IMG/VR virus record: IMGVR_UViG_3300022602_000026
Origin: a virus
Lineage: Duplodnaviria > Caudoviricetes
Length of the DNA stretch: 64,000 nt
Reading direction: 5' to 3' (one strand)
Part shown: one piece after another, positions 20,031 through 34,373 of the stretch
Layout of the letters: the number at the start of each line of letters is the position of its first letter
Numbering within the stretch: position 1 is the first letter of the stretch
Notes under the pieces: generated by a model
The model's database searches: none
What the model was told of the DNA's origin: nothing
What the model saw: only the letters and a program-made list of their open reading frames with translations
Translations under genes and position numbers: made by a program

Positions 20031-20125
20031 GTATTCTAAAACACACCAGATGACAATTCCTGGGGGCAATGAGAGCCCACTAAGGCAGGCACGGATCCCG
20101 TGATAACTGGTGTGTTTTAGAATAC
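20031..20125 (+). ncRNA. Stem-closed structured RNA (AAAACACA family)
   Basis: Perfect 19-bp IR gtattctaaaacacaccag/ctggtgtgttttagaatac with inner hairpins. Confidence 0.65.
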
Positions 20126-20219: not shown

Positions 20220-20310
20220 GGAAGGCCAATCCAAATGGCGATGGAACCGGTCTTGAAAACCGTCGAGCGTTAATAACGCCTTTAGAGTTCGACTCTCTAG
20301 CCTTCCGCCA
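20220..20310 (+). tRNA. tRNA-Ser(TGA)
   Basis: Cloverleaf, loop CTTGAAA, long variable arm, CCA. Confidence 0.9.
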
Positions 20311-20331
20311 AAATCTCACCGCTTCCGCCAA

Positions 20332-20601
20332 TGTTGTATTTGTGCAACACCGCAGTTGTTCAGAAATGACAACTCAGTTATAATAGATACAAGTTAAGCA
20401 ATTAACTGAAGTTAAGCAATTAACAAGTGTTGTATAACAACAACATCAAATTTGCAAAGAAATGATGTCTAAGTTATAATAGATACATGTTAAGAAATTA
20501 ACTAAGTTTAATTGATTAGCAAGTGTGTAGTGTAAATGCAACATCAAATTTGCAAAGAAATGATAAAGCAGTTACAATACATATATGTTAAGAAATTAAC
20601 A
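20332..20601 (+). promoter_or_regulatory. Three tandem operator-promoter units
   Basis: TGTTG(or TGTAG)-N8-CAACA, 6 nt, -35 TTGTTC/TTGCAA, 17 nt, TATAAT/TACAAT, then GTTAAGMAATTAAC; units start 20332, 20428, 20526. Confidence 0.8.
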
Positions 20602-20677
20602 GTAACAAATGATTGAGTTAGTTACAGAGTTCATTAAAAAATTATTTAGGTAGTGCTAGTTTTGCTTGGCAACAAGC

Positions 20678-20938
20678 ACTACTTTAAAACACATTTGAGG
20701 TTACCTACACCGTTAGGTTCTCTAGGAGAGGAGCAAGGGTGCCGACTCACGCAATCCTAGGGCAACATGAAACAGAGCAGTAATGCTTGGCGATAGCGGC
20801 GGACAGGTAGGCAGTAATGACGAACTGAAGTCTGTGCAGACGGTGCACCGGGATGTTATCGAGCGTAAACCCTTATTAGGTAACGAACGGGTTGTGAGAC
20901 GACAGAGGGGAGTTCCTCAAGTGTTTTTTAAAGTAGTT
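20678..20938 (+). ncRNA. ~260-nt structured RNA, unclassified
   Basis: 23-bp closing stem (one mismatch, one G-U), GUAA-capped hairpin, several internal complementary blocks, no ORF. Confidence 0.7.
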
Positions 20939-21008
20939 GAAACTCTAGATTAAATCCACTGGTAATAAAGAGAGAAGTGAGTGGTACTCTCCAACTACTA
21001 ACAATTTT

Positions 21009-21086
21009 GGTCTCATAGTATAGTTGGCCTAATATGCCTGCCTGTCACGCAGGAGATCACGGGTTCGAATCCCGTTGAGACCGCCA
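21009..21086 (+). tRNA. tRNA-Asp(GTC)
   Basis: Cloverleaf, loop CTGTCAC, CCA. Confidence 0.95.
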
Positions 21087-21156
21087 AAGTTTTCTGGCAT
21101 TTTAACAAGGCGAGCCGTCAATGCAGAGTCTAGTTAAATGTAAGTCCAATCTAATT

Positions 21157-21232
21157 GCATCGTTCTTCTAGAGGCCAAGGAAAACCGCCTTTCACGCGGT
21201 CAACACCGGTTCGAATCCGGTACGATGTACCA
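21157..21232 (+). tRNA. tRNA-Glu(TTC)
   Basis: Cloverleaf, loop CTTTCAC, CCA. Confidence 0.9.
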
Positions 21233-21238
21233 AAATTT

Positions 21239-21327
21239 GGGGGCTAATCCACACGGGAGACTGTAAATCTCTTGCCATAATATGTGTGGTGGCTGGCAGT
21301 TAGGTTCGATTCCTTTAGTCCCCACCA
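21239..21327 (+). tRNA. Atypical tRNA-Tyr(GTA)-like RNA lacking a D-arm
   Basis: Acceptor GGGGGCT/AGTCCCC + ACCA, loop CTGTAAA, T-loop TTCGATT, only 10 nt in D-arm position. Confidence 0.65.
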
Positions 21328-21338
21328 TTTGTAGTTGT

Positions 21339-21492
21339 TATTGATAAGTGTTTGAGATGAACATGGGGTATCGTGGACTGATCATCCGCTATGCGGGCCT
21401 AACTGGCGTGGAACAGGTCCTGACATAACCCGCCATACGCTGTTGCCGGAAACGATCCGACGCATAAATTGGCACTCAAGCACTTTTCAATA
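21339..21492 (+). ncRNA. Stem-closed structured RNA abutting tRNA-Arg
   Basis: 18-bp closing stem, inner tatgcg/cgcata and tggcg/cgcca helices. Confidence 0.6.
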
Positions 21493-21567
21493 GTCGCTAT
21501 AGTATAATGGATAATACGCCGTGCTACGAACGCGGTGATTGTGGTTCGATTCCATATAGCGGCACCA
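21493..21567 (+). tRNA. tRNA-Arg(ACG)
   Basis: Loop CTACGAA, CCA. Confidence 0.95.
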
Positions 21568-21573
21568 AACAAT

Positions 21574-21648
21574 GGAGTTGTTAGTTTAGTGGTAAAACCG
21601 CGGGTTGTGATTCCGCTATCACGAGTTCGATTCTCGTACTTCTCCCCA
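21574..21648 (+). tRNA. tRNA-His(GTG)
   Basis: Loop TTGTGAT, G-1, CCA. Confidence 0.9.
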
Positions 21649-21662
21649 GTGTAAAAGTTTTT

Positions 21663-21738
21663 GGGGGTATAGCTCATTTGGTAGAGCAGGACCTTTGCAA
21701 GGTCAAGGCGGCGGGTTCGAATCCTGTTACCTCCACCA
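21663..21738 (+). tRNA. tRNA-Ala(TGC)
   Basis: G3:U70, loop TTTGCAA. Confidence 0.95.
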
Positions 21739-21744
21739 GAATAC

Positions 21745-21836
21745 GGAGACTTGGATGAGTGGTTTAAATCGGCACCCTGCTAAGGTGTTGTATATAGTAA
21801 TATGTACCGAGAGTTCGAATCTCTCAGTCTCCGCCA
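21745..21836 (+). tRNA. tRNA-Ser(GCT)
   Basis: Loop CTGCTAA, long variable arm. Confidence 0.95.
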
Positions 21837-21839
21837 AAT

Positions 21840-21868
21840 TTGACAGTAAATGATGTTACTGTTACAAT
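21840..21868 (+). promoter_or_regulatory. Sigma70 promoter
   Basis: TTGACA-17-TACAAT. Confidence 0.8.
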
Positions 21869-21879
21869 AAGAAATCAGT

Positions 21880-21953
21880 TGGGGATTAGTTAAATGGTAT
21901 AACAGTGGATTTTGATTCCATCGTCGAAAGTTCGATTCTTTCATCCCCTGCCA
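21880..21953 (+). tRNA. tRNA-Gln(TTG)
   Basis: Loop TTTTGAT, CCA. Confidence 0.9.
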
Positions 21954-22100
21954 AAGTTTGTTAGTTATTAAAAAGGAAGTTAACATGAAAGACACTGCTA
22001 AACACTAGTGTCAATCTTGATCCCGTATTGGTCAGGGTTGGCACATTAAAGAACTCTTTAATATAGTATTAAGACATTAAAGAAACTTTTAATACACCAA

Positions 22101-22176
22101 CCCTCTGTGGCGCAATTGGTAGCGCAACGGACTCTTAATCCGCTGGTTGGCAGTTCAAATCTGCCCGGGGGGACCA
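22101..22176 (+). tRNA. tRNA-Lys(CTT)
   Basis: Loop CTCTTAA, CCA. Confidence 0.9.
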
Positions 22177-22179
22177 TAT

Positions 22180-22255
22180 GGGACGTTAGCTCAGTAGGTA
22201 GAGCAAGAAACTTTTAATTTCGAGGTCATGTGTTCGAATCACATACGTCCTACCA
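22180..22255 (+). tRNA. tRNA-Lys(TTT)
   Basis: Loop CTTTTAA, CCA. Confidence 0.95.
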
Positions 22256-22867
22256 TATAAAAACACATTAAGTAAGTCCCGGGCAAGATTCGTTTAATAG
22301 GCATTAGTGTGTTTCTATATGGTAAGTAATGATACAAGAGGGAGTAATTACCCTTCAAGTATGACCTAGAAGCGAGTGGACGAACGTGACTGTGGGCCAC
22401 TAAGGTAGTCAACATTACAATCCATATAAAAACACATTCTTGTGGGTAAGTGACTTGGTTAACGCCGATATCGACCGCCCGTTTGTAGTGTGTTTCTATA
22501 TGGTAAGGGCAAGGTGTGCTGTTGGTATCTGGCTTAGACCTCCGGACTGTCACTAGAATCATTACCGCTCTACTGCTTGGTCGGCAGTACCATATAAAAA
22601 CACATTAGAGTAGCGACTATTGCTGGAGGCGGTAACACGTAATTAGTGTGTTTTTATATGGTATATCAGTTTTTAGTAAGTCATACACGGGACTGCTACC
22701 TACGGGATAGATATCGAGGCTCGGAATCTCGGATACTAATTACAGACTCAATGACGGATGCATACGGCATTGTTGATACGCCATATAAAAACACATTATC
22801 TAACCTGTAGTGCGGTCACAGGACATCGTAAGGTGTGGTAGCCGTGTTAGTGTGTTTCTATATGGTA
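22251..22867 (+). repeat. Array of four conserved inverted-repeat stems with variable loops and variable CCA-ended spacers
   Basis: CCATATAAAAACACATT at 22253, 22422, 22590, 22781; AGTGTGTTTYTATATGG at 22306, 22487, 22645, 22849. Confidence 0.95.
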
Positions 22868-22939
22868 ATATAGCATAGTGGCTAATGCAGTTGCTTCATA
22901 CGCAACCTATCGTTGGTTCGAGTCCAACTATTACCACCA
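22864..22939 (+). tRNA. tRNA(CAT), Met or Ile2
   Basis: Acceptor GGTAATA/TATTACC, loop TTCATAC. Confidence 0.85.
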
Positions 22940-22941
22940 AG

Positions 22942-23048
22942 TTTCGGGATAGACGGCGCGATTGAGTCCCTTGACGGTCTTAGTGCTACAGGCTGTAGCA
23001 TGACACACCAGTAGACCATAAGGTAGCATAAACTCTTGCGTTCGAGAC
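22942..23048 (+). ncRNA. Possible long irregular hairpin RNA
   Basis: Nested pairs gcgcga/ttgcgt, gagt/actc, ggtct/agacc, tgctaca/tgtagca. Confidence 0.45.
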
Positions 23049-23053
23049 AAAGA

Positions 23054-23239
23054 CTAATCTTCTACACCGGGAAGTGGCGGTGTAGTCCTCTCTAGATCAG
23101 TTTCCCGAAAATCTTTATGTTGCGGGGGTTGTGCGTCTGGCACAAACTCCGCTGGAAGACACGTAAACATCTTTTGTTTATAAGGTCGATTTGAGTGTAC
23201 TTTGTACAACATTTGAAATTCTGTGTAGATGTCTTCCAT
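23054..23239 (-). CDS. 61-aa antisense late micro-protein
   Basis: TATAAATA (23244-51, minus strand) 4 nt before ATG; MEDIYTEFQMLYKV... Confidence 0.5.
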   Translation of the reverse strand: MEDIYTEFQMLYKVHSNRPYKQKMFTCLPAEFVPDAQPPQHKDFRETDLERTTPPLPGVED

Positions 23240-23251
23240 ACAGTATTTATA

Positions 23252-23328
23252 GCCCCGATAGCTCAGTTGGTAGTAGCACCGTCTTGATAAGGCGTAGGTC
23301 CCTGGTTCGAGTCCAGGTCGAGGCACCA
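23252..23328 (+). tRNA. tRNA-Ile(GAT)
   Basis: Loop TTGATAA, CCA. Confidence 0.95.
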
Positions 23329-23342
23329 AATTAAAAATTTAT

Positions 23343-23425
23343 TCCACGGGAGCCGCCGGGTGTGGCAGCGGACTGTTAATCCGTGTCGAAAGACTAGCTA
23401 GGTTCGAGCCCTAGCCGTGGAGCCA
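23343..23425 (+). tRNA. tRNA-Asn(GTT), long variable arm
   Basis: Loop CTGTTAA, GTC-GAAA-GAC arm. Confidence 0.9.
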
Positions 23426-23440
23426 ATCATAAATAACTAT

Positions 23441-24046
23441 ATGTATAATTGTATAGTTTGTGAAAAATCTTTTGTCAGCATTATGTCCTTAACCGGTCAT
23501 AAAAGAATGCACGGTCAATCTAATGGCAAATCTAAAAAGATATTGTGTTCGTGTTTAATTACACGTAAGGTAATGCCGCATCAATATTTAGAAAAATATC
23601 AAGACAGTTTAATGGGTTGTAAGCAATGTAAAAAATTGTTTAAACCAACTGCACAAAGAACTACTTTTTGCTCTCAATCTTGTTCGGCAACATATAACAA
23701 TACAGTTTACATAAAACGTAAGAAAAAAGAAAAACTGCCAAAGATTATTAGAGAGAAAAAAGTTTACTCAGAAGCCGAGAAAAAGGCTGCAAATGTTTCA
23801 GCAGTACAAGCCTACAGAGCTCGAAAATATAGTGCGACACTACCAGATACAAATCGCAAACTTATTAATGAGATTTACAAAATGTGCCCAAAAGGTTATG
23901 AAGTAGATCATATTATTGCGTTAAGCGAAGGTGGTCCGCACCATCAAGACAATTTACAGTATCTTCCTGCTATAGAAAATAGACGGAAGAACCGAACACA
24001 AAATTACGACAAAAGTCTTGCTATCAAATGGCAAGATGTGTTATAA
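23441..24046 (+). CDS. HNH endonuclease with Zn-finger-like N-terminus
   Basis: CxxC pairs; YEVDHIIALSEGGPHHQDNLQYL; start reset from 23417 to 23441. Confidence 0.85.
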   Translation: MYNCIVCEKSFVSIMSLTGHKRMHGQSNGKSKKILCSCLITRKVMPHQYLEKYQDSLMGCKQCKKLFKPTAQRTTFCSQSCSATYNNTVYIKRKKKEKLPKIIREKKVYSEAEKKAANVSAVQAYRARKYSATLPDTNRKLINEIYKMCPKGYEVDHIIALSEGGPHHQDNLQYLPAIENRRKNRTQNYDKSLAIKWQDVL

Positions 24047-24142
24047 TAAAAACAAATACAAGTCAGTTCCCGGATGACTCGAAAAATGCGGGCTGCTCAA
24101 TCGCCAACGGAGCGAGCGTAAGGTAACAGTTGGACAAATTTC

Positions 24143-24227
24143 GCCCCTTTGCGCCGAATGGGATGGCAACGGATTTGTAATCCGTCTTCGTAAGATAGAG
24201 AGTGTTCGATTCACTCAGGGGGCACCA
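24143..24227 (+). tRNA. tRNA-Thr(TGT), long variable region
   Basis: G1-C72/C2-G71, loop TTTGTAA, 14-nt variable region. Confidence 0.85.
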
Positions 24228-24234
24228 AACAACA

Positions 24235-24483
24235 ATGTGGACATACTTAGAAACTTTTTTATTAGTATTTGCAACCGACATACTTTATATCTATTATGTT
24301 AAAGCCGTAACAGATCATAAAATATGGCGTGCAACCTTTTGGAGTATGGTAGTTACATTTACTGCTAGTATAGCAGTGATCAACTACACCGAGAACCATT
24401 GGACACTGATATCAAGTTTACTGGGTGCCGGAGCCGGCACTTATATAGGTATGCGATTCATTAAAAAGAATAACGGAGTATAG
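24235..24483 (+). CDS. Small three-helix membrane protein
   Basis: 82 aa, hydrophobic, GAGAGTYIG; stop lies inside tRNA-Pro. Confidence 0.7.
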   Translation: MWTYLETFLLVFATDILYIYYVKAVTDHKIWRATFWSMVVTFTASIAVINYTENHWTLISSLLGAGAGTYIGMRFIKKNNGV

Positions 24484-24551
24484 CGCAGTCTGGCTAGCGC
24501 ATCTGCTTTGGGAGCAGAGGGTCCAAGGTTCGAATCCTTGTACTCCGACCA
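24474..24551 (+). tRNA. tRNA-Pro(TGG)
   Basis: Loop TTTGGGA, CCA. Confidence 0.95.
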
Positions 24552-24563
24552 ATTAAATATAGT

Positions 24564-25634
24564 ATGAAAAGAATAGTTTGGCCATTAAAGATTTATGGTG
24601 ACAAAGATTTATCGGGCAAAATTTGCACGATCCCTTTTAATACTGTAGCAATATCAATTGAAGGTGATGTTCGTATATGTATGTGTACTGATTGGATGCT
24701 ATCCACAGTTGGCAACATTTATGAAAATTCCTTACAAGATATTTTAGTTAATGCAAGATCCACAACAATAAGACAATCTATTGTTGATGGTAATTTTAGA
24801 TACTGTGACGAAACCAGATGCGGAGTATTGCTTAATTCAGACACAGGATTAATTACAGTAACGCAAGAAGATCAATTATTAAAAAATTTACTTGATCCTG
24901 CAAATTTTACAATACCATCTGAGATATGGATAAGTGGTGACATGACCTGTAACCTTTCTTGTCCATCTTGTAGAAAAAGCATAATTCGAGAAACAGAAGC
25001 ACAACAACGACAAAATCAAGAGCTATTAGATAATTTAGTTCAACATATTTTTCCTGGCTCCAGCGATAAAGAAATTACCTTGTACATGAGCGCAACTGCT
25101 GAAGTATTTGCTAGTTCACTGTTACTGGGTTTGTTGGAAAAATTGCCCATTGATCGATACCCTAACATTAGATTAAGTCTACAAACAAACGGGTTATTGG
25201 CCGAACGTAGATGGTCTAGGATCCAACATTTAGAAAAGAATATACATCGTATCACAGTTACCATAGATAGTTGTACCAAACAAAACTATGAACTATTGAG
25301 ACGAGGTGGTAAATTTGAAGATATGGAAAGTAGCTTAGAGTTTTTTTCAAAGAAAAAACGCGAGCTAGGGTTTCAGTATTATATTAGATCAGTAACGCAA
25401 CAAACAAATTGCAACGAGATCGAACAATTTTATGATTATTGCAAACAACACGACGCTGATCGAGTTGAATACTGTAAGTTGGCCAATTGGGGAACTTTCA
25501 CCGAGCAAGAATTTTTAGCACACGATGTGCTTGATAACGCACACCAACAGTACCAATCAACAATTGATACTTTTAATCGACTCAAAGAAAAATACAACGA
25601 TGTATTTTTTATAGGCTTCGCAAGTATGGCGTAA
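24564..25634 (+). CDS. Radical SAM protein with N-terminal SPASM-like domain
   Basis: TCNLSCPSC, LQTNG, ITVTIDS; stop lies inside tRNA-Leu. Confidence 0.9.
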   Translation: MKRIVWPLKIYGDKDLSGKICTIPFNTVAISIEGDVRICMCTDWMLSTVGNIYENSLQDILVNARSTTIRQSIVDGNFRYCDETRCGVLLNSDTGLITVTQEDQLLKNLLDPANFTIPSEIWISGDMTCNLSCPSCRKSIIRETEAQQRQNQELLDNLVQHIFPGSSDKEITLYMSATAEVFASSLLLGLLEKLPIDRYPNIRLSLQTNGLLAERRWSRIQHLEKNIHRITVTIDSCTKQNYELLRRGGKFEDMESSLEFFSKKKRELGFQYYIRSVTQQTNCNEIEQFYDYCKQHDADRVEYCKLANWGTFTEQEFLAHDVLDNAHQQYQSTIDTFNRLKEKYNDVFFIGFASMA

Positions 25635-25705
25635 TCGGTAGCCGCAGCAGACTTAAAATCTGCCGAGTTTGACTCGTCCCGGTTCGATTCCGGGTACTTG
25701 CACCA
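25620..25705 (+). tRNA. tRNA-Leu(TAA)
   Basis: Loop CTTAAAA, long variable arm. Confidence 0.95.
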
Positions 25706-25707
25706 AC

Positions 25708-25784
25708 ACCACTGTAGTCTAACTGAATAAGGCACCGCTCTTCTAAAGCGTACGATGTGAGTTTGAATCTCGCCAGTGGTACCA
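25708..25784 (+). tRNA. tRNA-Arg(TCT)
   Basis: Loop CTTCTAA, CCA. Confidence 0.9.
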
Positions 25785-25826
25785 TTTATCATAAATACTT
25801 CTATGTAAAGACTAGGAGTAGAAGTA

Positions 25827-26528
25827 ATGGATTATAAGAAAATATACGAAAATTTAATAGATCGTGCTAGAGATCGATGTTTAATAGATGGTGAATATTA
25901 TGAATCGCACCACATTGTTCCTAGATGTTTAGGTGGTAATGATAGTATTGATAATTTAGTAAATCTAACAGCTAGAGAACATTTTATAGCACATTTATGC
26001 CTAGTTAAGAATAATCCGGGTAATCATAAACTTGTGAAAGCGGCCGTTATGATGACTGTTAGTGGCACAGTTCATAATAGAATAGGGAATAGAGTTTATG
26101 AATGGTTAAGAAAAAAGCATTCAGTTGCAATGAGTATTTCACAATCCGGAAAAGGTAATAGCCAATTTGGATCTGTCTGGGTATTTAACGATATCTTAAA
26201 AGAAAATAAAAAAGTTAAAAAATCTGAATTATCTACGTTTATTGCCGCCGGGTGGCATGAAGGAAGAGTTTATGATTTTGATAGCGTATATCAAAATTGT
26301 GCAGTTTGTGGAAAAGACTTCAGAAACCATTTTAAGAAAAAGACTTGCAGTTACACATGTCAAGAAATCTTAAAAGGCAAATTTAAAAGTTTTGAAGGCA
26401 AAGAAGAAGAATTAAAAATGCATTATGCAAATACTAAGAGTATGAATAAAGCATTAAAGGCAATGGGATATCCTGGAGCAGTTAGCCATTATTATCAATG
26501 GGCTAAACGTATCCTAAAGCAAACATAA
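25827..26528 (+). CDS. HNH homing endonuclease
   Basis: YYESHHIVPRCLGGNDSIDNLVNLTAREHFIAHLCL. Confidence 0.9.
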   Translation: MDYKKIYENLIDRARDRCLIDGEYYESHHIVPRCLGGNDSIDNLVNLTAREHFIAHLCLVKNNPGNHKLVKAAVMMTVSGTVHNRIGNRVYEWLRKKHSVAMSISQSGKGNSQFGSVWVFNDILKENKKVKKSELSTFIAAGWHEGRVYDFDSVYQNCAVCGKDFRNHFKKKTCSYTCQEILKGKFKSFEGKEEELKMHYANTKSMNKALKAMGYPGAVSHYYQWAKRILKQT

Positions 26529-26531
26529 TTT

Positions 26532-26606
26532 GCGACTATAGCATAGCGGTAGTGCCGCGAACTCATAATTCGTACGGGGGTGGTTCGAATCCACCTGGTC
26601 GCACCA
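26532..26606 (+). tRNA. tRNA(CAT), elongator Met or Ile2
   Basis: Loop CTCATAA, CCA. Confidence 0.9.
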
Positions 26607-26611
26607 AATTT

Positions 26612-26687
26612 GCAACTTTAGCTGATGTGGTCATAGCGGTGGCGTGAAGAGCCATTGAACTAGGTTCGATTCCTAGAGGTTGCACCA
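26612..26687 (+). tRNA. tRNA-Phe(GAA)
   Basis: Loop GTGAAGA (unusual G32). Confidence 0.9.
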
Positions 26688-26691
26688 AATC

Positions 26692-26769
26692 GCCCCCGTG
26701 GACAAATTGGCAAAGTCATTTCTCTCAAAAGGAAAAGTTTTCTCCGTTCGACTCGGAGCGGGGGTACCA
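26692..26769 (+). tRNA. tRNA-Leu(CAA), short variable region
   Basis: Loop CTCAAAA, 6-nt variable region. Confidence 0.85.
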
Positions 26770-26771
26770 AG

Positions 26772-26845
26772 GCTCTTGTAGTTAAGTGGCATAACACAGT
26801 CTTGGTAAGACTGAATAGAAAGTTCGATTCTTTCCTAGAGCACCA
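26772..26845 (+). tRNA. tRNA-Thr(GGT)
   Basis: Loop TTGGTAA. Confidence 0.9.
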
Positions 26846-26846
26846 G

Positions 26847-26875
26847 TTGACAAATAAATAGAATGATAGTATAAT
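26847..26875 (+). promoter_or_regulatory. Consensus sigma70 promoter with nested TAAATA
   Basis: TTGACA-17-TATAAT. Confidence 0.85.
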
Positions 26876-26885
26876 AGATACTAAT

Positions 26886-26959
26886 GCGGGATTAGTTTAA
26901 TGGTAAAACAGAACCTTGCCAAGGTTCGGACAGGAGTTCGATTCTCCTATCCCGCTCCA
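26886..26959 (+). tRNA. tRNA-Gly(GCC)
   Basis: Loop TTGCCAA. Confidence 0.95.
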
Positions 26960-26966
26960 AGAGTTC

Positions 26967-27040
26967 GCCTCGGTAGTTTAATGGTAGAACGGCATCCTTA
27001 CACGGTGCATACGGGAGTTCGATTCTCCAACGAGGTACCA
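26967..27040 (+). tRNA. tRNA-Val(TAC)
   Basis: Loop CTTACAC. Confidence 0.9.
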
Positions 27041-27048
27041 AGAAAGAT

Positions 27049-27122
27049 GGGTCATTAGTATAATGGTAGTACAAGAGTCTCCAAAACTTTTAGCGGTGGT
27101 TCGATTCCATCATGACTCGCCA
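27049..27122 (+). tRNA. tRNA-Trp(CCA)
   Basis: Loop CTCCAAA. Confidence 0.9.
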
Positions 27123-27128
27123 AACAAT

Positions 27129-27206
27129 GTAAGGGTGGCAGAGTGGCCCAATGCAACGGATTGCAAATCCGTAAAACCGTCGGTTCAAATCCGACCCCTT
27201 ACTCCA
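27129..27206 (+). tRNA. tRNA-Cys(GCA)
   Basis: Loop TTGCAAA, U73. Confidence 0.95.
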
Positions 27207-27213
27207 ACAATTT

Positions 27214-27945
27214 ATGCACAATAGATCATTTAGACCCGAACAAGAAAAAAAATTGCGGGAAAATATTGGTCCCAGCGGAGTTGTAGAAAACTTTTTAACC
27301 CATGATGAATTCGAGTTGTGTAGAAAACTACATGCCGAAAACATAGACAAAATAAAAATGGGATTTGTGTTTAGGCAAGCAGCATTTGATTGGGAGTCCG
27401 AATACGGGGCCATGTTTAAATGGATACAGCCCAAGATTGATGCAATAGTTCCTGCTGAATGGGAATTGGATTTTATTGCTTTGCAGGATACTCCGGATCC
27501 TTGGAGGATACATATTGATCTTGCCTGGAACGCAGACAAGTTGCCGTATAAGGTATTGCTAGTTCCAGTAGATGTACTACCTGAATCAGGACCAGTAGAT
27601 CCCGTCAATTGGCCTGCGGTTTACACAATAATTTTTAATCAAAGAAACTTTTTATCAAATTGCAAGCCGTTGCCTCCGGGGGCTAGTTGGATACGATCCA
27701 TTGATGATCCCAGTGTTGAAAATCTTGAAACAGGGTTTTGTATAACTAGAGAATTTTGGCAACAGTATCTAACACATGTCGACTATGAAGCTTTAGAAGG
27801 ATTAACAGTAGAAACTTTGCTTCCTTGGAAACCAAAGTCTGTATTGTATTGGGATACTTCGGTATTGCACATAGCAGACAATTTTGTCAAGAATAAAGTT
27901 AAAACAAAGAAGTCAGTGATATTTTTTATACGACATAAACTATGA
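27214..27945 (+). CDS. Putative 2OG-Fe(II) oxygenase-fold protein
   Basis: WRIHID (HxD) plus distal LHIAD. Confidence 0.5.
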   Translation: MHNRSFRPEQEKKLRENIGPSGVVENFLTHDEFELCRKLHAENIDKIKMGFVFRQAAFDWESEYGAMFKWIQPKIDAIVPAEWELDFIALQDTPDPWRIHIDLAWNADKLPYKVLLVPVDVLPESGPVDPVNWPAVYTIIFNQRNFLSNCKPLPPGASWIRSIDDPSVENLETGFCITREFWQQYLTHVDYEALEGLTVETLLPWKPKSVLYWDTSVLHIADNFVKNKVKTKKSVIFFIRHKL

Positions 27946-28135
27946 GCATAATTAAAGATGCGAGAAAACTGCAATAGCCGGCGGCCCAACTGCTAGGGAA
28001 CCATTTGTGTCCCGGAGGCCATGTACCCGTTGGCAACAACGCTGGCGTACCTGTTGGCTACAGGATGAACACACTCCGGGAAGGGGACGACGATGTTGAA
28101 CCCCTTTAAACGTACAGCAGTATCTTTAATTATGC
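27946..28135 (+). ncRNA. Stem-closed structured RNA abutting tRNA-Arg
   Basis: Perfect 14-bp closing IR gcataattaaagat/atctttaattatgc; tcccggag/ctccggga; cgttg-GCAA-caacg; cctgt/acagg; agggg/cccct. Confidence 0.7.
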
Positions 28136-28212
28136 GGGTCCGTAGCTCAGCAGGATAGAGTACTGGTCTTCGAAACCAGCTGTCGGCGGTTCGAACCCGT
28201 CCGGACTCACCA
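28136..28212 (+). tRNA. tRNA-Arg(TCG)
   Basis: Loop CTTCGAA. Confidence 0.95.
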
Positions 28213-28232
28213 ATTACCAGATAAGTAACTTA

Positions 28233-28988
28233 ATGTTATCAATCATTATTGCAACCTTTAACGCACCTGACTTATTGAAGTTGGCCATTGACTCGGTGTT
28301 GCGACAAACTAGTCCCAATTGGGAAATCGTTGTCAGTCCCGATGACGGGCAAGACTATTCTCGTCTCAGGGACTTGGATAAAAGAATTCAAGTGGTTGAA
28401 TCCAATGCCATTGCTACAGGACCTGGGGCCGCTAGGAATAGAGCATTGGAGTATGTGAGGGGCACCGCAGTGGCCAGTCTGGATGACGATGACGAGTTGT
28501 CAATGACCTACGTAGAGGATGCGTTGACGGCCTTGGCCTCAACCCCTGTTGTAGTGTTTCCCACTCGTTATTCCGACATTCGTGTTATTGCACAACACCT
28601 AGACAGTATCAACATAGAACAATTTAGCCAACTGCTTGGCAGTTTGCATGTGGTAGCACGTAGAGAATGTTTTCCGCCTTGGCCCAATTGTTTTGCTGAA
28701 GATGTGATTCACACCTGCAAAGTAATTGAACAACAAGGCGGTAGTATTCCGGTCATTAACACCGCTGAATATATTTTAAATGTGCGTGATGCCAGTATGT
28801 GTGCAACTTATAAAAACATAGATGCCGAATACGCCGACATTATTTGCAACACTACTAGTACTGCAATGGCCAATCTATTTAGATACAGACAACACATTAA
28901 TCGTCTTTATCAAGGTAGCAGTTTAAATTATCATGCGTTTGTTGAACAGTTGACAACAAATGAAATAAACAGTATAATACATTTTTAG
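28233..28988 (+). CDS. Glycosyltransferase family 2
   Basis: MLSIIIATFN, GPGAARNRAL, LDDDD. Confidence 0.9.
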   Translation: MLSIIIATFNAPDLLKLAIDSVLRQTSPNWEIVVSPDDGQDYSRLRDLDKRIQVVESNAIATGPGAARNRALEYVRGTAVASLDDDDELSMTYVEDALTALASTPVVVFPTRYSDIRVIAQHLDSINIEQFSQLLGSLHVVARRECFPPWPNCFAEDVIHTCKVIEQQGGSIPVINTAEYILNVRDASMCATYKNIDAEYADIICNTTSTAMANLFRYRQHINRLYQGSSLNYHAFVEQLTTNEINSIIHF

Positions 28989-28994
28989 GAGGCA

Positions 28995-29585
28995 ATGATG
29001 CCAGCAACATTTTTGGTAAGTGACACACATTTTGGACATAGCGGTGTATGTCGTTTTACTCGTAATGACGGCATAACAAAATTGCGTCCATGGGACAATG
29101 CAGATGAGATGGATGAAGCTATGGTCCGGGCTTGGAACGAACGTGTCCGTCCCACAGACAAAGTTTACCATCTTGGGGATGTTGTGATTAATCGTAAAGC
29201 ACTCGCGATCATGCACAGACTTAACGGCGACAAGGTTTTGATTCGTGGTAATCACGATATCTTTAAAGACACCGACTACCGTGAACACTTTAGAGAACTT
29301 AGAGCCTATCACGTTATGAACGGCATGATCCTTAGTCACATACCGCTCCATCCTGAAAGTTTGGGCCGCTTTGGTACGAACATACACGGACATTTGCATG
29401 CCAATCGTGTTATGATAACAAAGCATAAAGGTGCTGCTCCTGAAGTTGATGTACGCTACCATTGTGTATGTGTGGAACAAACTCCGGACTTTGCACCTAT
29501 CTTGTTTGAAGACGTTAAAAAGCGTATCATAGAAGAAGGTGGCAGCATTGACTTTAAAAATAACGGCAATGGCCCTGCGATGTAA
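28995..29585 (+). CDS. Calcineurin-like metallophosphoesterase
   Basis: SDTHFGH, HLGDV, RGNHD, HGHLH. Confidence 0.92.
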   Translation: MMPATFLVSDTHFGHSGVCRFTRNDGITKLRPWDNADEMDEAMVRAWNERVRPTDKVYHLGDVVINRKALAIMHRLNGDKVLIRGNHDIFKDTDYREHFRELRAYHVMNGMILSHIPLHPESLGRFGTNIHGHLHANRVMITKHKGAAPEVDVRYHCVCVEQTPDFAPILFEDVKKRIIEEGGSIDFKNNGNGPAM

Positions 29586-29595
29586 ATAGTATAGT

Positions 29596-29679
29596 GCCCC
29601 GGTGGTGTAATGGTAGCCACGCTAGTCTTAGGAACTAGTGCCGCAATGCGTGTCGGTTCGAGTCCGACCTGGGGCACCA
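29596..29679 (+). tRNA. tRNA-Leu(TAG)
   Basis: Loop CTTAGGA, long variable arm. Confidence 0.95.
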
Positions 29680-29689
29680 AATAAAATAA

Positions 29690-31555
29690 ATGAAAAATAT
29701 ATACTTAATACAACCCAATGAGATGCAGGAGTTCCAAGGTAAAAAAATATTTTGGTTGCCCTACACCTCGGGGGTGTTGTGGGCCTATGCACTACAGTTT
29801 CCCGAAGTAAGCAATAATTATTGTTTACAGGATTTGATGTTCCATAGAGAAAAAATCAGTTCGGTGGTTGATCGCGTATTGCCCAATTCTATTTTTGCAT
29901 TCAGTTGTTATATATGGAATTGGGAATACAATAAAAAATTAGCACAAGCAATCAAAGAACGATATCCCGACTCGTATATTGTTTTCGGTGGGCCGCAGGT
30001 GAGTGACCGTCCATTGGAAACTGACTTTTTTAAAAAACACAAATACGTTGATACTATTGTACTAGGCGAAGGTGAAGAATCATTTACACGACTATTGATA
30101 GACTATGTTGATGGTAAAAAAACAAAGATATACAATAGTAAACGTTTAGAAAATGTCAACACTCCCAGTCCATACCAAGTTGGTGTATTTGATAAAATAA
30201 TTGCCGACAATCCCGAGTTCCACTGGAATGGAGTACTAGAAACAAATAGAGGATGTCCGTTTGCTTGTACCTTCTGTGACTGGGGAGGACTAACATACAG
30301 CAAAGTTAAACAACTGCCTATTGATCGTGTTGATCACGATATTGAATGGTTTGGTATAAATCAAATCGAATACATAGCTGTAGCCGATGCAAACTTTGGA
30401 ATTTTCAAAGATCGAGATTTAAAGATTGCTAAAAAGATCACAGACGTTAGATTAAAGTATGGATATCCGGCAAATTTAAATATCAACTTTAATAAAAATC
30501 AAACCTCGGACATAGTAAACATAGTAAAGGTACTTGCCGAAAGCGGACTTAACCGCGGATTAACTATTAGTTTTCAAAGTCTTGATGACGATGTACTAGA
30601 AGCTATCAAGCGCAAGAACATGGCCATTAGCAAAAGCGAAGAAATATTTCGACTGCTCGAAGAGTCCAATCTAACTCACTATTCGGAAGTTATTTGTCCT
30701 TTGCCTTTAGAAACATACGATACTTGGCGAGCCGGTTTAATCAAATTAATAACTGCCGGACAACATCAATGTATTGATGCTTTCTTTACTGCTGTATTAG
30801 AAAACAGTGAAATGAATCAACCCGAATATAGACGCAAATACGATATTAAGTCTATAGAACGAGAATACATATTCTTCTTTCACTTTGGCGCCGAAGACGT
30901 ATTAACCGAAGAAGCCACAGAAAAAATAAACTTAATTGTCTCGACCAGTACAATGAGTCTTGATGATCATATACGCAGTTGGATGTATACTTGGCTTATT
31001 ACAAATTTCCACATATATGGTTGGACACAGATCTATGCTAGATTTTTAAATGCACACAACATCAAGTATGATGTGTTCTACGATTGTCTCTTAGATGAAA
31101 TTGCAAATCAACGCATGGGATTTTTAAGCGAACAATATCTAGAAGTAAAACGCATGATAACATTGTTACTAACCGAAGGTAGTAACTTAAAGGATGTGGG
31201 ACTCAGTCCTGATGTAATTAGATTTAGTCAACGATATTTCCATCGTAATCGAAAATTGGTTGAGCAGTTGTTGGCCGACTATGTCAAAACTCAATTTGAT
31301 CCAGAGAACTTTGTTAATCTACATCGGTACCAAATCAATTTTGTATCTCACATGGATCAAGGCGAATCAAGACACGAGGTACTGGACCTGGGAATAAAGG
31401 ACACAATAACAAAAGGTGTGCCCTACCAAGAAAACCTAAAGGAATGCACAGTAGCACCAGTGGGAACTTATTCCAGCCAAGAAGAATTTTTAGCTAAAAC
31501 AATCATGCATAGAAGAAATGGTTTTGGCAAAAATCTAATACTTGACAAAGAATAA
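29690..31555 (+). CDS. Cobalamin-binding radical SAM protein
   Basis: FSCYIWN, VFGGPQ, GEGEE, ETNRGCPFACTFCDWG. Confidence 0.92.
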   Translation: MKNIYLIQPNEMQEFQGKKIFWLPYTSGVLWAYALQFPEVSNNYCLQDLMFHREKISSVVDRVLPNSIFAFSCYIWNWEYNKKLAQAIKERYPDSYIVFGGPQVSDRPLETDFFKKHKYVDTIVLGEGEESFTRLLIDYVDGKKTKIYNSKRLENVNTPSPYQVGVFDKIIADNPEFHWNGVLETNRGCPFACTFCDWGGLTYSKVKQLPIDRVDHDIEWFGINQIEYIAVADANFGIFKDRDLKIAKKITDVRLKYGYPANLNINFNKNQTSDIVNIVKVLAESGLNRGLTISFQSLDDDVLEAIKRKNMAISKSEEIFRLLEESNLTHYSEVICPLPLETYDTWRAGLIKLITAGQHQCIDAFFTAVLENSEMNQPEYRRKYDIKSIEREYIFFFHFGAEDVLTEEATEKINLIVSTSTMSLDDHIRSWMYTWLITNFHIYGWTQIYARFLNAHNIKYDVFYDCLLDEIANQRMGFLSEQYLEVKRMITLLLTEGSNLKDVGLSPDVIRFSQRYFHRNRKLVEQLLADYVKTQFDPENFVNLHRYQINFVSHMDQGESRHEVLDLGIKDTITKGVPYQENLKECTVAPVGTYSSQEEFLAKTIMHRRNGFGKNLILDKE

Positions 31556-31570
31556 CAAAGAGTATATAAT
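31542..31570 (+). promoter_or_regulatory. Consensus sigma70 promoter
   Basis: TTGACA-17-TATAAT. Confidence 0.85.
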
Positions 31571-31576
31571 AGCTAT

Positions 31577-31651
31577 TGCAGGGTGGAGAAGTGGCAACTC
31601 ACCGGGCTCATAACCCGGAGATCACAGGTTCGAATCCTGTCCCTGCTACCA
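31577..31651 (+). tRNA. Initiator tRNA-fMet(CAT)
   Basis: 1:72 mismatch, GGG/CCC anticodon stem, loop CTCATAA. Confidence 0.92.
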
Positions 31652-31662
31652 AATATAAAATT

Positions 31663-32718
31663 ATGAAACATAGAGTAGAACGTGGTATAGGAGTTTACAT
31701 TACACATACCTGTAATTTAAACTGCACTGACTGCAATACGTTTAATAATTTTTCTTTTTCAGGACATCAACGTTGGAGTGATTACCAAGCTCTATATACC
31801 GAATGGTCCAAGCGAATAGACACTTATACATTTTTTATAATTGGCGGCGAGCCAATGACCAATCCTGATTTTTTATCTTGGGTACATGGTATTGCTGGAC
31901 TATGGCCCGACTCTGAAATAAAAATAACAACCAACGGCACACAATTTAAACGTTGGCCCACACTGTATCAGGAATTGTTGCCGTATCGTGGACGAGTTAG
32001 ATTGTTTATCAGTGTACACAACGAAGACTCGATACAACACTATGTTGATATAGCACGAGAATTTTTACAAGGCGACATATCCGAATACACCGATCGTGCA
32101 TTTGACGAGTTTCATTGGCAACGCAGTTACAATCGCATTAGAGGCAGTGATTGGCCCGATTGTAACAGTATAGAAGAATACCAAAATCTTCCCGAGCACA
32201 TCAAACAAGAATGTGAACAAGTACATAACATAAAGATACAGGATTTTGTAGAACAAGCCGAAATTACTCCAGGCAGTCGAATTTTCATTGACTCTAATCA
32301 TGTTAGGCTATCGTTTTCGTTAAACGACAAGTTTGCCAGTTCGTCCGTTAGACTTGACAACAATCAATTATCGTTATACAATAGTGATCCCAACAAAGCA
32401 ATTTCGGCATGTTATTTAAAAGCCTGTCATCGTTTTTATAAAGGAAAATTATACAAGTGTCCGGTAGTACCAGTATTGCCGGACTTTGCGGAACAGTTTT
32501 CTTTACCGCTCAGTGACAGTGATCAAAAACTAATTAACTCTTACCGTGCCGGAGAAGCCGATTGGGACGACGTTCAATTAGCAGAATTGATCGATAACTT
32601 TGAAAAAGAAACAGTAATTGACCAATGCAAATTTTGTCCCGAACAGTTGAAAACAGTTACAATAAAATCGTCGGCTAAAAAGATCAAGATTCACAATACA
32701 ACACCAAGGAGACTTTAA
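31663..32718 (+). CDS. Radical SAM protein with inserted WPDC module
   Basis: HTCNLNCTDC, IGGEP, TTNG, GKLYKCP; start reset past the tRNA. Confidence 0.9.
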   Translation: MKHRVERGIGVYITHTCNLNCTDCNTFNNFSFSGHQRWSDYQALYTEWSKRIDTYTFFIIGGEPMTNPDFLSWVHGIAGLWPDSEIKITTNGTQFKRWPTLYQELLPYRGRVRLFISVHNEDSIQHYVDIAREFLQGDISEYTDRAFDEFHWQRSYNRIRGSDWPDCNSIEEYQNLPEHIKQECEQVHNIKIQDFVEQAEITPGSRIFIDSNHVRLSFSLNDKFASSSVRLDNNQLSLYNSDPNKAISACYLKACHRFYKGKLYKCPVVPVLPDFAEQFSLPLSDSDQKLINSYRAGEADWDDVQLAELIDNFEKETVIDQCKFCPEQLKTVTIKSSAKKIKIHNTTPRRL

Positions 32719-32942
32719 TGTCATATACAAGTAGAGGCACTTTTATCGATACCGAAAAATGTGTAGAAGCCGTAGGCGGAAACAGATTTAATTTAATCGT
32801 AATTGCCAGTATGCGAGCACGAGAAATTGCACAACAAAATCGTCACAGTCATCACCACGCACATTGGCATACTCCGGTTACTGCACTACTTGAAGTACAA
32901 AATGGTGAGTTAAATTACACCGACTTAAAACGTCTTAGATAA
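32718..32942 (+). CDS. rpoZ: RNA polymerase omega subunit homolog
   Basis: GNRFNLIVIASMRAREI...PVTALLEVQNG matches RpoZ pattern. Confidence 0.8.
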   Translation: MSYTSRGTFIDTEKCVEAVGGNRFNLIVIASMRAREIAQQNRHSHHHAHWHTPVTALLEVQNGELNYTDLKRLR

Positions 32943-32952
32943 GTAAAAATAT

Positions 32953-33026
32953 GCGAGGTTCGTATAGTGGTAATACCTTAGCCTTCCAAGCTAATGCTGA
33001 GAGTTCGATTCTCTTACCTCGCTCCA
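32953..33026 (+). tRNA. tRNA-Gly(TCC)
   Basis: Loop CTTCCAA. Confidence 0.95.
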
Positions 33027-33046
33027 CAATTTAATAAAGGAAACAC

Positions 33047-33316
33047 ATGAGAGTTAAAGCAAGCCATATTTTGGTTCCAACATTGAACGAAGCAGTTACA
33101 CTAAAAGCAAAAATTGATGCTGGTGAAAGTTTTGCAGATCTAGCACGAGTACATAGTAAATGTCCAAGCGGACCACTTGGTGGAGACTTGGGCGAGTTTG
33201 GTCCCGGACAAATGGTACCAGCATTCGAACAAGCCACACATAATACACCAGTGGGTCAAGTAAGCCAGCCGGTGCAAACACAATTTGGATATCATTTAAT
33301 TCACAGGATCGCGTGA
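33047..33316 (+). CDS. ppiC: Parvulin peptidyl-prolyl isomerase
   Basis: ASHILV, FADLA, SKCPS, GGDLG, TQFGYHLI. Confidence 0.92.
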   Translation: MRVKASHILVPTLNEAVTLKAKIDAGESFADLARVHSKCPSGPLGGDLGEFGPGQMVPAFEQATHNTPVGQVSQPVQTQFGYHLIHRIA

Positions 33317-33480
33317 TGACCGATGTCAAGAAACCAAATTCTCTAGTAGAAGTATTAAAAAACGCACAAAAGAATCCCAAAGTACCAGCAAGTACCAGCG
33401 CCAAAGTTCAACAGGCCAAATTCAAAAATCAAGTAGCCAGTAACAGGCCCACCAAAAAAGCCGCTGGACGTGGTGGATAA
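33316..33480 (+). CDS. 54-aa basic hypothetical protein
   Basis: TGATG-coupled to ppiC. Confidence 0.55.
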   Translation: MTDVKKPNSLVEVLKNAQKNPKVPASTSAKVQQAKFKNQVASNRPTKKAAGRGG

Positions 33481-33549
33481 TTCCAAAACACTTGATTTAT
33501 CAGTATAAATACTATACAATACAAATACTTTTATAAAAGGAGATTCTCA

Positions 33550-34098
33550 ATGAAAAAAGTACTAGCATCTGCAATCTTAGCAGTTTCAGCAGCCGTTGCA
33601 TTTGGCGCAGACTATGCAACCGTAGAAGTCGACCACGTGCGTGACACAGTTACCAAGCAATCATACGCAGCAGAATATGTGCGTTTTGGTGCAGAAGTAG
33701 CCGGCTTGCAACTTGGTTTACAAGACCGTACCGGCGACTATCGTGATGGCACTGGCTTGTTCCATAGTACAGAAGCCACAGCAGGTAAAACAGTATTTGG
33801 TATTACACCTTATGTTGGTTTAGGTTTTGATGACGGCAAAAATGGCGGAGCAGGCAATGCTTACCAATATGGTTTAGTTGGTATCAACGCTGGCTTGAAG
33901 GCAGGACCAGGTTATGCGTTCGGTGGAGTTAAGACTCGTGCCAACGAAGCTCATAGCACAAATCCCAAGCAAACAGTGGCCTATGGTACATATTCAATTC
34001 CAGTTGTTCAGAAAGTTAGTTTTGATTTAAATCTAAGCAAAAGCTATCAAGACATTCATGAAAATTCATATGGCTTAGGACTAACTGTAAACTTCTAA
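33550..34098 (+). CDS. Small outer-membrane beta-barrel protein
   Basis: Signal peptide MKKVLASAILAVSAAVAFG, amphipathic strands, C-terminal Phe; promoter TTGATT-17-TACAAT at 33492. Confidence 0.75.
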   Translation: MKKVLASAILAVSAAVAFGADYATVEVDHVRDTVTKQSYAAEYVRFGAEVAGLQLGLQDRTGDYRDGTGLFHSTEATAGKTVFGITPYVGLGFDDGKNGGAGNAYQYGLVGINAGLKAGPGYAFGGVKTRANEAHSTNPKQTVAYGTYSIPVVQKVSFDLNLSKSYQDIHENSYGLGLTVNF

Positions 34099-34119
34099 TC
34101 CGATTAGGATAAAACAATT

Positions 34120-34141
34120 GCCCACTTAGGTGGGCTTTTTC
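34120..34141 (+). terminator. Intrinsic terminator
   Basis: gcccac-ttag-gtgggc plus T run. Confidence 0.8.
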
Positions 34142-34198
34142 TTGACTTATCGTTCTTGATGTGTTATACTAATACTTTACAACCCTTAAAGGAACATT

Positions 34199-34360
34199 AT
34201 GTTTGAAAGTTTAGAAATCCGCAGAGCCGCAAATGGTTTTATACTTGTAGTCAACACCGAAGACGAAGCACGGGAATATGTATATGATACCGAGCGTAAA
34301 CTCATGCGAGTAATTAAAAGTCACTTGGGTGAAAAGATAACTACCGAAGACCAAGACTAA
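34199..34360 (+). CDS. 53-aa hypothetical protein
   Basis: TTGACT-17-TATACT promoter, AAGGA RBS; MFESLEIRRAANGFILVV. Confidence 0.7.
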   Translation: MFESLEIRRAANGFILVVNTEDEAREYVYDTERKLMRVIKSHLGEKITTEDQD

Positions 34361-34373
34361 TAAATATTCTACA

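Follow-up and report, generated by a model that had tools for sequence, protein, structure and literature searches.

A predicted compact RNA family of freshwater jumbo phages, found within and outside their tRNA arrays

What is encoded between a run of promoters and a transfer RNA (tRNA) gene on a phage genome where the G+C content rises from 0.23-0.31 in the promoter region to 0.51-0.54 in the stretch that follows? The question arises in 64,000 nucleotides (nt) of DNA from a tailed-phage record of IMG/VR (IMGVR_UViG_3300022602_000026), a stretch called the window hereafter. The window is part of the genome of a novel jumbo phage, with a large terminase gene (4683-6245; 53% identity to PA5oct-type terminases) and 29 tRNA genes, all on the same strand, spanning 20220-33026. 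An initial annotation had placed here an unclassified structured RNA of ~260 nt, closed by a long helix, transcribed from the + strand and leading the main tRNA transcript. Its coordinates prove right, and comparison of homologous sequences identifies 20678-20937 as a predicted non-coding RNA gene whose product folds compactly. The + strand of this segment folds at -85.5 kcal/mol (z = -2.76 versus shuffles). A protein-coding reading was rejected: the open reading frame (ORF) at 20783-20953 (56 amino acids) is not conserved, and the longest closed ORF of the family members has a median length of 20 amino acids.

The RNA has many relatives. In the closest of the virus records searched, the copy is 74% identical, with blocks of identity that alternate with variable hairpins. 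A 17-base core pattern (GGTTACCTACNNNGTTAGGT) retrieved 36 IMG/VR stretches, nearly all of them homologs by nhmmer, and a second block (GTAGGNAGTAATGAC) together with a metagenome scan added further loci. The family counts at least 121 loci at nhmmer E<1e-10 across IMG/VR and freshwater metagenomes, a lower bound from both collection scans, with at least 72 distinct 5' domains and at least 46 clusters at ~90% identity; the RNA length ranges from about 185 to 280 nt. Among the matches listed, all family contigs are viral or metagenomic and come from fresh water, and the sequencing runs listed as sharing words with the window were all made on DNA, none on RNA, from metagenomes labeled lake, freshwater or pond, a result that has no bearing on expression. 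The core pattern gave 112 matches in the 185,579 GTDB species genomes of bacteria and archaea, all attributable to chance (best nhmmer E 0.006), and blastn of the window copy and one typical member found no match in 50,697 GenBank phage records. A covariance model of the family (R1, described below) found nothing in PA5oct, Phosso, Atu_ph07 and Vibrio phage 2.275.O, the cultured phages whose terminases come closest (44-53% identity), while recovering five of five positive controls. By these searches, the family is phage-only and carried by a freshwater jumbo phage lineage. All five near-complete genomes, of 280-356 kilobases (kb), hold exactly one copy, and four of them encode 26-33 tRNAs; in two (G004 and G005), a distance of tens to hundreds of kb separates the RNA from the main array of 29-33 tRNAs, which itself contains no copy.

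Evidence for the fold comes from pairing that is kept while the letters change. Model R1 was built from 13 near-gapless members and an RNAalifold structure and then used to align 45 distinct members. In this alignment, standard pairs fill 93.2% of cells, a value that drops to 38-44% when the 3' partners are slid by 1-3 columns, and none of 500 shuffles reached the observed pairing values. Changes on both sides occur at 40 of 55 pairs. These counts come from related sequences, and fitting the alignment to the model biases them toward the structure. The closing helix, P1, however, was scored independently by duplex folding and reaches 22-26 base pairs (bp) in most members, with many compensatory changes and with sequences that are quite different between subfamilies. 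In the window, P1 consists of 12 bp (20678-20689/20926-20937) and 10 bp (20691-20700/20915-20924) around a single C/U mismatch, with one wobble, U20694-G20921. The homolog collection and the model thus uphold, through strong covariation, the structured RNA first proposed by eye.

Two further pairs fix the strand. One pair of P2b is U-G in 44 of 44 sequences, and in helix 9, the GACC/GGUU stem adjoining P1, one pair is G-U in 40; since these invariant pairs would be A-C on the opposite strand, the RNA should be read from the + strand, as are the tRNAs and as had been supposed. The same pairs bear on whether the locus could be a DNA-level element (an origin, a recombination site or the inverted repeat of a mobile element) or an inverted repeat that arose by chance, in either case lacking a function as RNA. 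A long terminal inverted repeat is indeed present and similar inverted repeats recur regionally, but RNA is indicated by conserved pairs that turn into A-C mismatches when the other strand is read, by the GNRA loops, by nested compensatory changes across 11 helices and by where the promoters sit, and we give a DNA-level explanation hardly any credence.

The fold branches repeatedly and contains two three-way junctions; at the one that holds P3 and P4, the joining strands are invariant (coordinates in Table 1). From P1, the strand UUA leads into the long-range helix P2 (model helices 2 and 3), which is 97-100% paired and in which two pairs swap C-G for U-A; the single strand CAGUAAU that follows its 3' side is near-invariant. 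The P3 arm (model helices 4-7) includes a conserved internal loop and ends in a tip of four bases. P3 is joined to P4 by (C)AUGAAAC, in which AUGAA is near-invariant, and a strand of the GGAGAAGCG type follows P4. P4 (model helix 8) is 97% paired, changes on both sides at all five of its pairs and carries a GNRA loop in most members. The loop of P6, in the 3' arm, has the consensus AGAYGKU across the family. Of the pairings named in the initial annotation, the GUAA-capped hairpin agca/tgct corresponds to P4 and ctagg/cctag to P3a, both kept by covariation. The complementary ttaccta and taggtaa are present as letters but are not conserved, and the CCUAC of the former pairs instead with GUAGG of P2. 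Neither aacat/atgtt nor the potentially crossing ctcac/gtgag is conserved: their 3' partners lie in an insertion (~20849-20910) peculiar to the window's subfamily and represented by only three sequence variants, and both pairings are lost in L006/L026. A terminator-like hairpin at 20905-20918, weak and specific to the window, was rejected.

Table 1. Features of the RNA locus in the window
Feature	Coordinates	Strand	Remarks
Three tandem sigma-70-type promoters	20356-20578	+	consensus matches; inside three ~96-nt direct repeats, 20332-20621
Promoter 1	20356-20384	+	TTGTTC-N17-TATAAT
Promoter 2	20452-20480	+	TTGCAA-N17-TATAAT
Promoter 3	20550-20578	+	TTGCAA-N17-TACAAT
A/U-rich box	20629-20643	+	GUUCAUUAAAAAAUU (consensus GUUCUUUAAAAAGUU); between promoters and P0
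P0 GNRA hairpin	20664-20677	+	GCUUG-GCAA-CAAGC; abuts P1, no spacer
RNA proper	20678-20937	+	260 nt; P1 5' strand through P1 3' strand
P1 5' strand	20678-20700	+	partner 20915-20937; A-rich; core AAAACACAU common to other closing stems of the phage group
P2 5' strand	20704-20714	+	CCUAC(A) with GUAGG 20807-20811; CCGUU with GGCGG 20798-20802
P3 arm	20720-20762	+	P3a 20720-20726/20756-20762; P3b 20737-20740/20745-20748; tip GCCG 20741-20744
Junction strand, P4, junction strand	20763-20797	+	CAACAUGAAACA; P4 hairpin 20775-20788, GUAA loop; GGCGAUAGC
P2 3' strand and following strand	20798-20818	+	GGCGG, bulge ACA, GGUAGG, then CAGUAAU
P6 hairpin	20834-20848	+	GUGC/GCAC; seven-base loop AGACGGU; in 3' arm
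Putative extra 3' hairpin(s)	20849-20910	+	limited to the window's subfamily (window, L004/L005, L006, L026)
P1 3' strand	20915-20937	+	U-rich
tRNA-Asp	21009-21086	+	first tRNA 3' of the RNA; starts 71 nt past P1

A mutual-information scan of the alignment ranks the modeled pairs at the top and brings out two further contacts. One is an isolated pair (columns 134-183) that is standard in 42 of 45 sequences, all of those having both letters, and takes five pair types. The other joins the P3 tip to the P6 loop: at columns 66-240, 33 sequences have G-C and 5 have A-U, every sequence has C-G at columns 65-241, and columns 64-242 form C-G, A-U or G-C in 26 of 38. In the window, the letters concerned are C20742-G20744 and C20841-G20843. 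We consider this loop-loop contact likely rather than proven because the G-C to A-U swap may be one evolutionary event, both carrier lineages sharing their P3 and P6 modules. A pairing between the AGACGKU loop and ACCGU of P2 was dropped, as it fails for the GUU and GCG loop variants. Covariation does not separate contacts within a molecule from contacts between molecules. We hold two bolder proposals to be unlikely: (i) the P3 tip could meet the P6 loop of another copy, building a multimer from RNA only, or (ii) the invariant junction strands could be the active site of a ribozyme of a new class, engaged in the tRNA metabolism of jumbo phages. If the former were true, an RNA of ~200 nt would be a small relative, in principle, of the nanocages formed by ROOL and GOLLD, which assemble from RNA alone through intermolecular kissing loops.

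Structured RNAs of similar size that combine covariation, invariant junctions and a tertiary contact have mostly proved to be ribozymes, riboswitches, cores of ribonucleoproteins or self-assembling RNAs. Known families offer no match. Searched against Rfam 15, whose models include tmRNA, RNase P, SRP, 6S, Y RNA, group I/II, GOLLD, ROOL, OLE, raiA, HEARO and manA, 20678-20938 hit no family either at the gathering threshold or with E relaxed to <=10, in keeping with its description as unclassified, and the window's Rfam matches are tRNAs only; two typical members (L083 and L016) returned only noise, at 9.7-13.4 bits, from models of eukaryotic long non-coding RNAs and microRNAs. The hallmark of RNase P RNA is the long-range P4 pseudoknot with its flanking CR-I/CR-V consensus. 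Its model does not match, the fold contains no CR-I or CR-V strings, and the order of helices differs: RNase P runs P1-P2-P3-P4...P4'-P2'-P1', whereas in the phage RNA P2 closes before the 3' arm. Likenesses noticed by eye to strings of the Escherichia coli and Bacillus subtilis RNase P S domains and to 5S rRNA were dismissed, as they involve subfamily-only sequence or a few letters and have no model support. The 6S RNA model does not match either; 6S RNA is a rod-like duplex whose large central bubble mimics an open promoter, in contrast to the branched phage RNA with its two three-way junctions. Nor do the Y_RNA and YrlA models match, and a TROVE domain is absent from the ten neighboring ORFs scanned.

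Another reading is a ribozyme, one that would process itself or act on pre-tRNAs or other RNAs, with the invariant junction strands as its active site. Such a role would suit a compact, tertiary-stabilized fold in which near-invariant unpaired nucleotides gather at two three-way junctions, and the link at genome level to phages with 26-33 tRNAs. Yet none of the ribozyme families in Rfam matches, not even with E relaxed to 10, the helix order is unlike that of RNase P, and no conserved context of a cleavage site was identified, so that catalysis appears to us quite unlikely.

Among phage RNAs, the resemblances are of setting. ROOL and GOLLD, which the initial annotation had aptly named, are phage and prophage RNAs found near tRNA islands, have no known function, and contain kissing loops that were first seen as covariation (PMC12286853). 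They share with the RNA described here a phage origin, the tRNA-island setting (at 28 of 43 loci, our RNA lies within a same-strand tRNA array) and an elaborate fold. They differ in length (500-800+ nt versus about 185-280 nt), show no similarity to it in sequence or by model, and are known from bacteria and prophages, whereas the new RNA is confined, among the matches listed, to viral and metagenomic freshwater contigs. RNAC and RNAD of phage T4 are stable non-tRNA RNAs from the tRNA gene region, with unknown roles (PMC3014915); the likeness is again one of setting, and, unlike them, the new RNA also occurs away from tRNA arrays, with its own promoter. The manA and wcaG motifs of T4-like cyanophages are likewise multi-stem-junction RNAs of large aquatic phages, known mainly from metagenomes (PMC2864571), but they occupy the 5' untranslated regions of defined metabolic gene classes, are riboswitch candidates, and have Rfam models that do not match our RNA. 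The family may or may not be among the ~10,000 unnamed candidates that a 2023 catalogue of viral RNAs drew from IMG/VR (PMC10690425), and a 2026 preprint on noncoding space makes no mention of phages. Matched against Rfam 15, the RNA can be classed as a new family among the orphan structured phage RNAs of tRNA islands and would form a third, much smaller class beside the unexplained GOLLD, ROOL and T4 RNAC/D. It is conserved in single copy across diverse lake phages of 280-356 kb, behind their strongest-looking promoters, and its size of ~200 nt suits direct structural and biochemical study.

What the RNA does may be sought in how its loci are built. At every locus inspected, sigma-70-type promoters precede it; tRNA-embedded relatives have two to three tandem TTGAC-N17-TATAAT promoters directly 5' of the RNA. 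Their order is stereotyped: an upstream tRNA and hairpin, tandem promoters, the A/U-rich box, P0, the RNA and then a tRNA. The box lies 5' of P0 in 9 of 9 tRNA-embedded relatives inspected, and a hairpin ends 0-1 nt 5' of P1 in 13 distinct tRNA-embedded members. In the window, P0 differs from that of L001/L026 by a G-C to C-G swap and has an alternative longer form (20650-20657/20675-20682). The upstream hairpin reported earlier is therefore real in its conserved part, the GNRA hairpin; the form gtagtgct/agcactac, which would compete with P1, occurs only in close relatives. In about two thirds of loci, a tRNA begins ~5 nt past P1; in most of the tRNA-embedded relatives, the first tRNA starts 5-6 nt past it, and 11 distinct loci show this spacing. 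The layout fits co-transcription with tRNAs and release by tRNA-processing enzymes, as for RNAs of the T4 RNAC/RNAD type. The window departs from it in that a conserved 70-nt element separates P1 from tRNA-Asp. With three promoters before it and tRNA-Asp after it, the RNA would head a tRNA unit, as first claimed; to call that unit the main tRNA transcript is an oversimplification, since the window's tRNA region contains additional consensus promoters.

The remaining loci, termed promoter-type, have a promoter so placed that transcription would begin at the base of P1. Here the RNA is followed by a second promoter or by a ribosome-binding site and a small ORF; these small ORFs are homologous between loci and shuffled in order like early-gene cassettes. 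Downstream neighbors of the RNA thus vary between tRNAs of different identities and unrelated small ORFs, and among the neighboring ORFs there is no fixed protein partner, none keeping a constant position relative to the RNA. This variety speaks against a riboswitch or another ligand-sensing leader that governs downstream expression. An aptamer-like three-way junction with conserved joining strands, 5' of genes, would fit such a device; the loci, however, present no consistent class of downstream gene and neither a terminator nor a platform for sequestering a ribosome-binding site, they have independent promoters downstream, and a P1 of 22-26 bp is far too stable for switching. We regard ligand sensing as very unlikely.

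We posit instead, with a probability of roughly 0.55, that the product is a stable, trans-acting early RNA excised by host enzymes that process tRNA and double-stranded RNA. Transcription of the + strand from the strong sigma-70-type promoters, identified as consensus matches, would place the RNA first in a tRNA transcription unit or in an early-gene cassette of its own. Host enzymes could excise it from the longer transcript: an RNase P cut at the tRNA ~5 nt downstream would set the 3' end, and on the 5' side RNase E or RNase III could act at the A/U-rich box, which may be an RNase E-type processing site, or in P1, which is a plausible RNase III site because its two helical turns are the size that this enzyme needs. 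With P0 stacked on P1, exonucleases would find no free single-stranded end, so the RNA would accumulate and, early in infection, bind a host or phage protein as a decoy, a scaffold or a ribonucleoprotein subunit, and it would not act by controlling the adjoining gene. We favor a free-standing, trans-acting RNA because the gene is single-copy, shows cassette-like mobility, has unrelated downstream neighbors and can lie far from the array; the second promoter that is often found between the RNA and the next ORF is another sign of a free-standing gene.

Several points weigh against this proposal. Trans action and the processing enzymes are both deduced from how the loci are laid out. In every case, transcription past the promoters would reach the RNA before any other element, which a cis-acting leader would explain as well. 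P1 comprises only 4-13 bp in eight members, so that not all of the family has a long stem for processing, and most promoter-type loci have no terminator after the RNA, which therefore is not a classic self-contained small RNA gene.

The leader just mentioned would remain tethered to RNA polymerase as nascent RNA and confer resistance to intrinsic or Rho-dependent termination, or organize processing, across the array or operon. The put RNA of HK022 and the EAR element of Bacillus are cis-acting antitermination RNAs located just past strong promoters that head long operons, and the phage RNA holds a put-like position, directly 3' of a promoter at the operon head. It does so at every locus, before tRNA arrays and early ORFs alike, and tRNA arrays are long, untranslated and rich in hairpins with U-rich spacers after them. 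The RNA resembles put and EAR in neither sequence nor fold, however: put RNA has two hairpins in ~70 nt, and the phage RNA has about three times that size and another architecture. A second promoter often separates the RNA from the next gene, more consensus promoters lie inside the window's tRNA region, and the main arrays of 29-33 tRNAs in G004 and G005 do without a copy. Where the tRNA begins merely 5 nt past P1, moreover, RNase P would cut the tether almost immediately. A role as cis-acting leader thus seems doubtful, and a free-standing, trans-acting RNA remains our preferred reading.

Other elements near these loci add to the picture of the tRNA region. The promoter repeats of the window (20332-20621) and those upstream of the RNA in L083, L028 and L023 share an initially transcribed box past the -10 element, AGA.AC..GUUA(A/G)GAAAUUA(A/G)C; at the promoter-type loci L007 and L016, sequence akin to this box is the P1 5' strand itself. 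The AAAACAC/GUGUUUU core of the closing stem recurs in long A/U-rich stems that enclose further small cargos of the tRNA regions; the window has such stems at 20031-20125 and around each of four units at 22251-22867, and L028 and L083 have them too. The four units lie between tRNA-Lys and tRNA-Met, are ~70-86 nt long with G+C-richer spacers of ~100 nt, and enclose differing cargo in a near-identical stem of 17-20 bp (CCAUAUAAAAACACAUU / UAGUGUGUUUCUAUAUGG) that resembles P1 of the RNA. The shared stem hints at a common packaging of stable RNAs in tRNA operons.

The ~70-nt element between the RNA and tRNA-Asp (20938-21005) is near-identical in L001, L004 and L026 despite a different RNA core. 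Its layout is pseudoknot-like (CCACU...GAGAG...AGUGG...CUCUC), it has no Rfam match, and its first stem covaries in L006 (CCUUAC/GUAGGG); AGUAGUUG/CAACUACU could enclose it, overlapping the end of P1. The spacer between tRNA-Asp and tRNA-Glu (21095-21155; AAGGCGAGCCGUCAAUGCAGAGUCUAG...UGUAAGUCCAAUCUAAUU) is kept in L001 and also lies 3' of the RNA in L110, a locus with no nearby tRNAs. At 21239-21325, a tRNA-like gene not called by ARAGORN has a class II shape, a long variable arm, a CCACCA end and the anticodon loop CUGUAAAUC (GUA, Tyr); its sole model match is a weak one to tRNA-Sec (22.5 bits, E = 0.11). A second G+C-rich non-coding stretch, at 21340-21490, has its own closing stem (UUGAUAAGUGUUUGAG / CUCAAGCACUUUUCAAUAG), and a related core (GGGCCUAACUG...ACAGGUCCU.ACAUAAC) is found 3' of the RNA in L091; this is probably another conserved small RNA. 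The loci L034 (13890-14010) and L069/L045 have no called tRNAs, yet tRNA-like sequences with a GCGCCA or ACCA end, which ARAGORN calls only sometimes, stand 3' of the RNA, and in L034 a clear intrinsic terminator follows. Farther downstream in the window, at 23417-35816, other genes are interleaved with the tRNAs. They include three for radical S-adenosylmethionine (SAM) proteins, at 24564-25634 (SPASM), 29690-31555 (B12-binding domain) and 31576-32718, together with a family-2 glycosyltransferase, a metallophosphoesterase, an AMP-binding-type enzyme and two HNH endonucleases, and may constitute a module for the modification of nucleic acids or tRNA.
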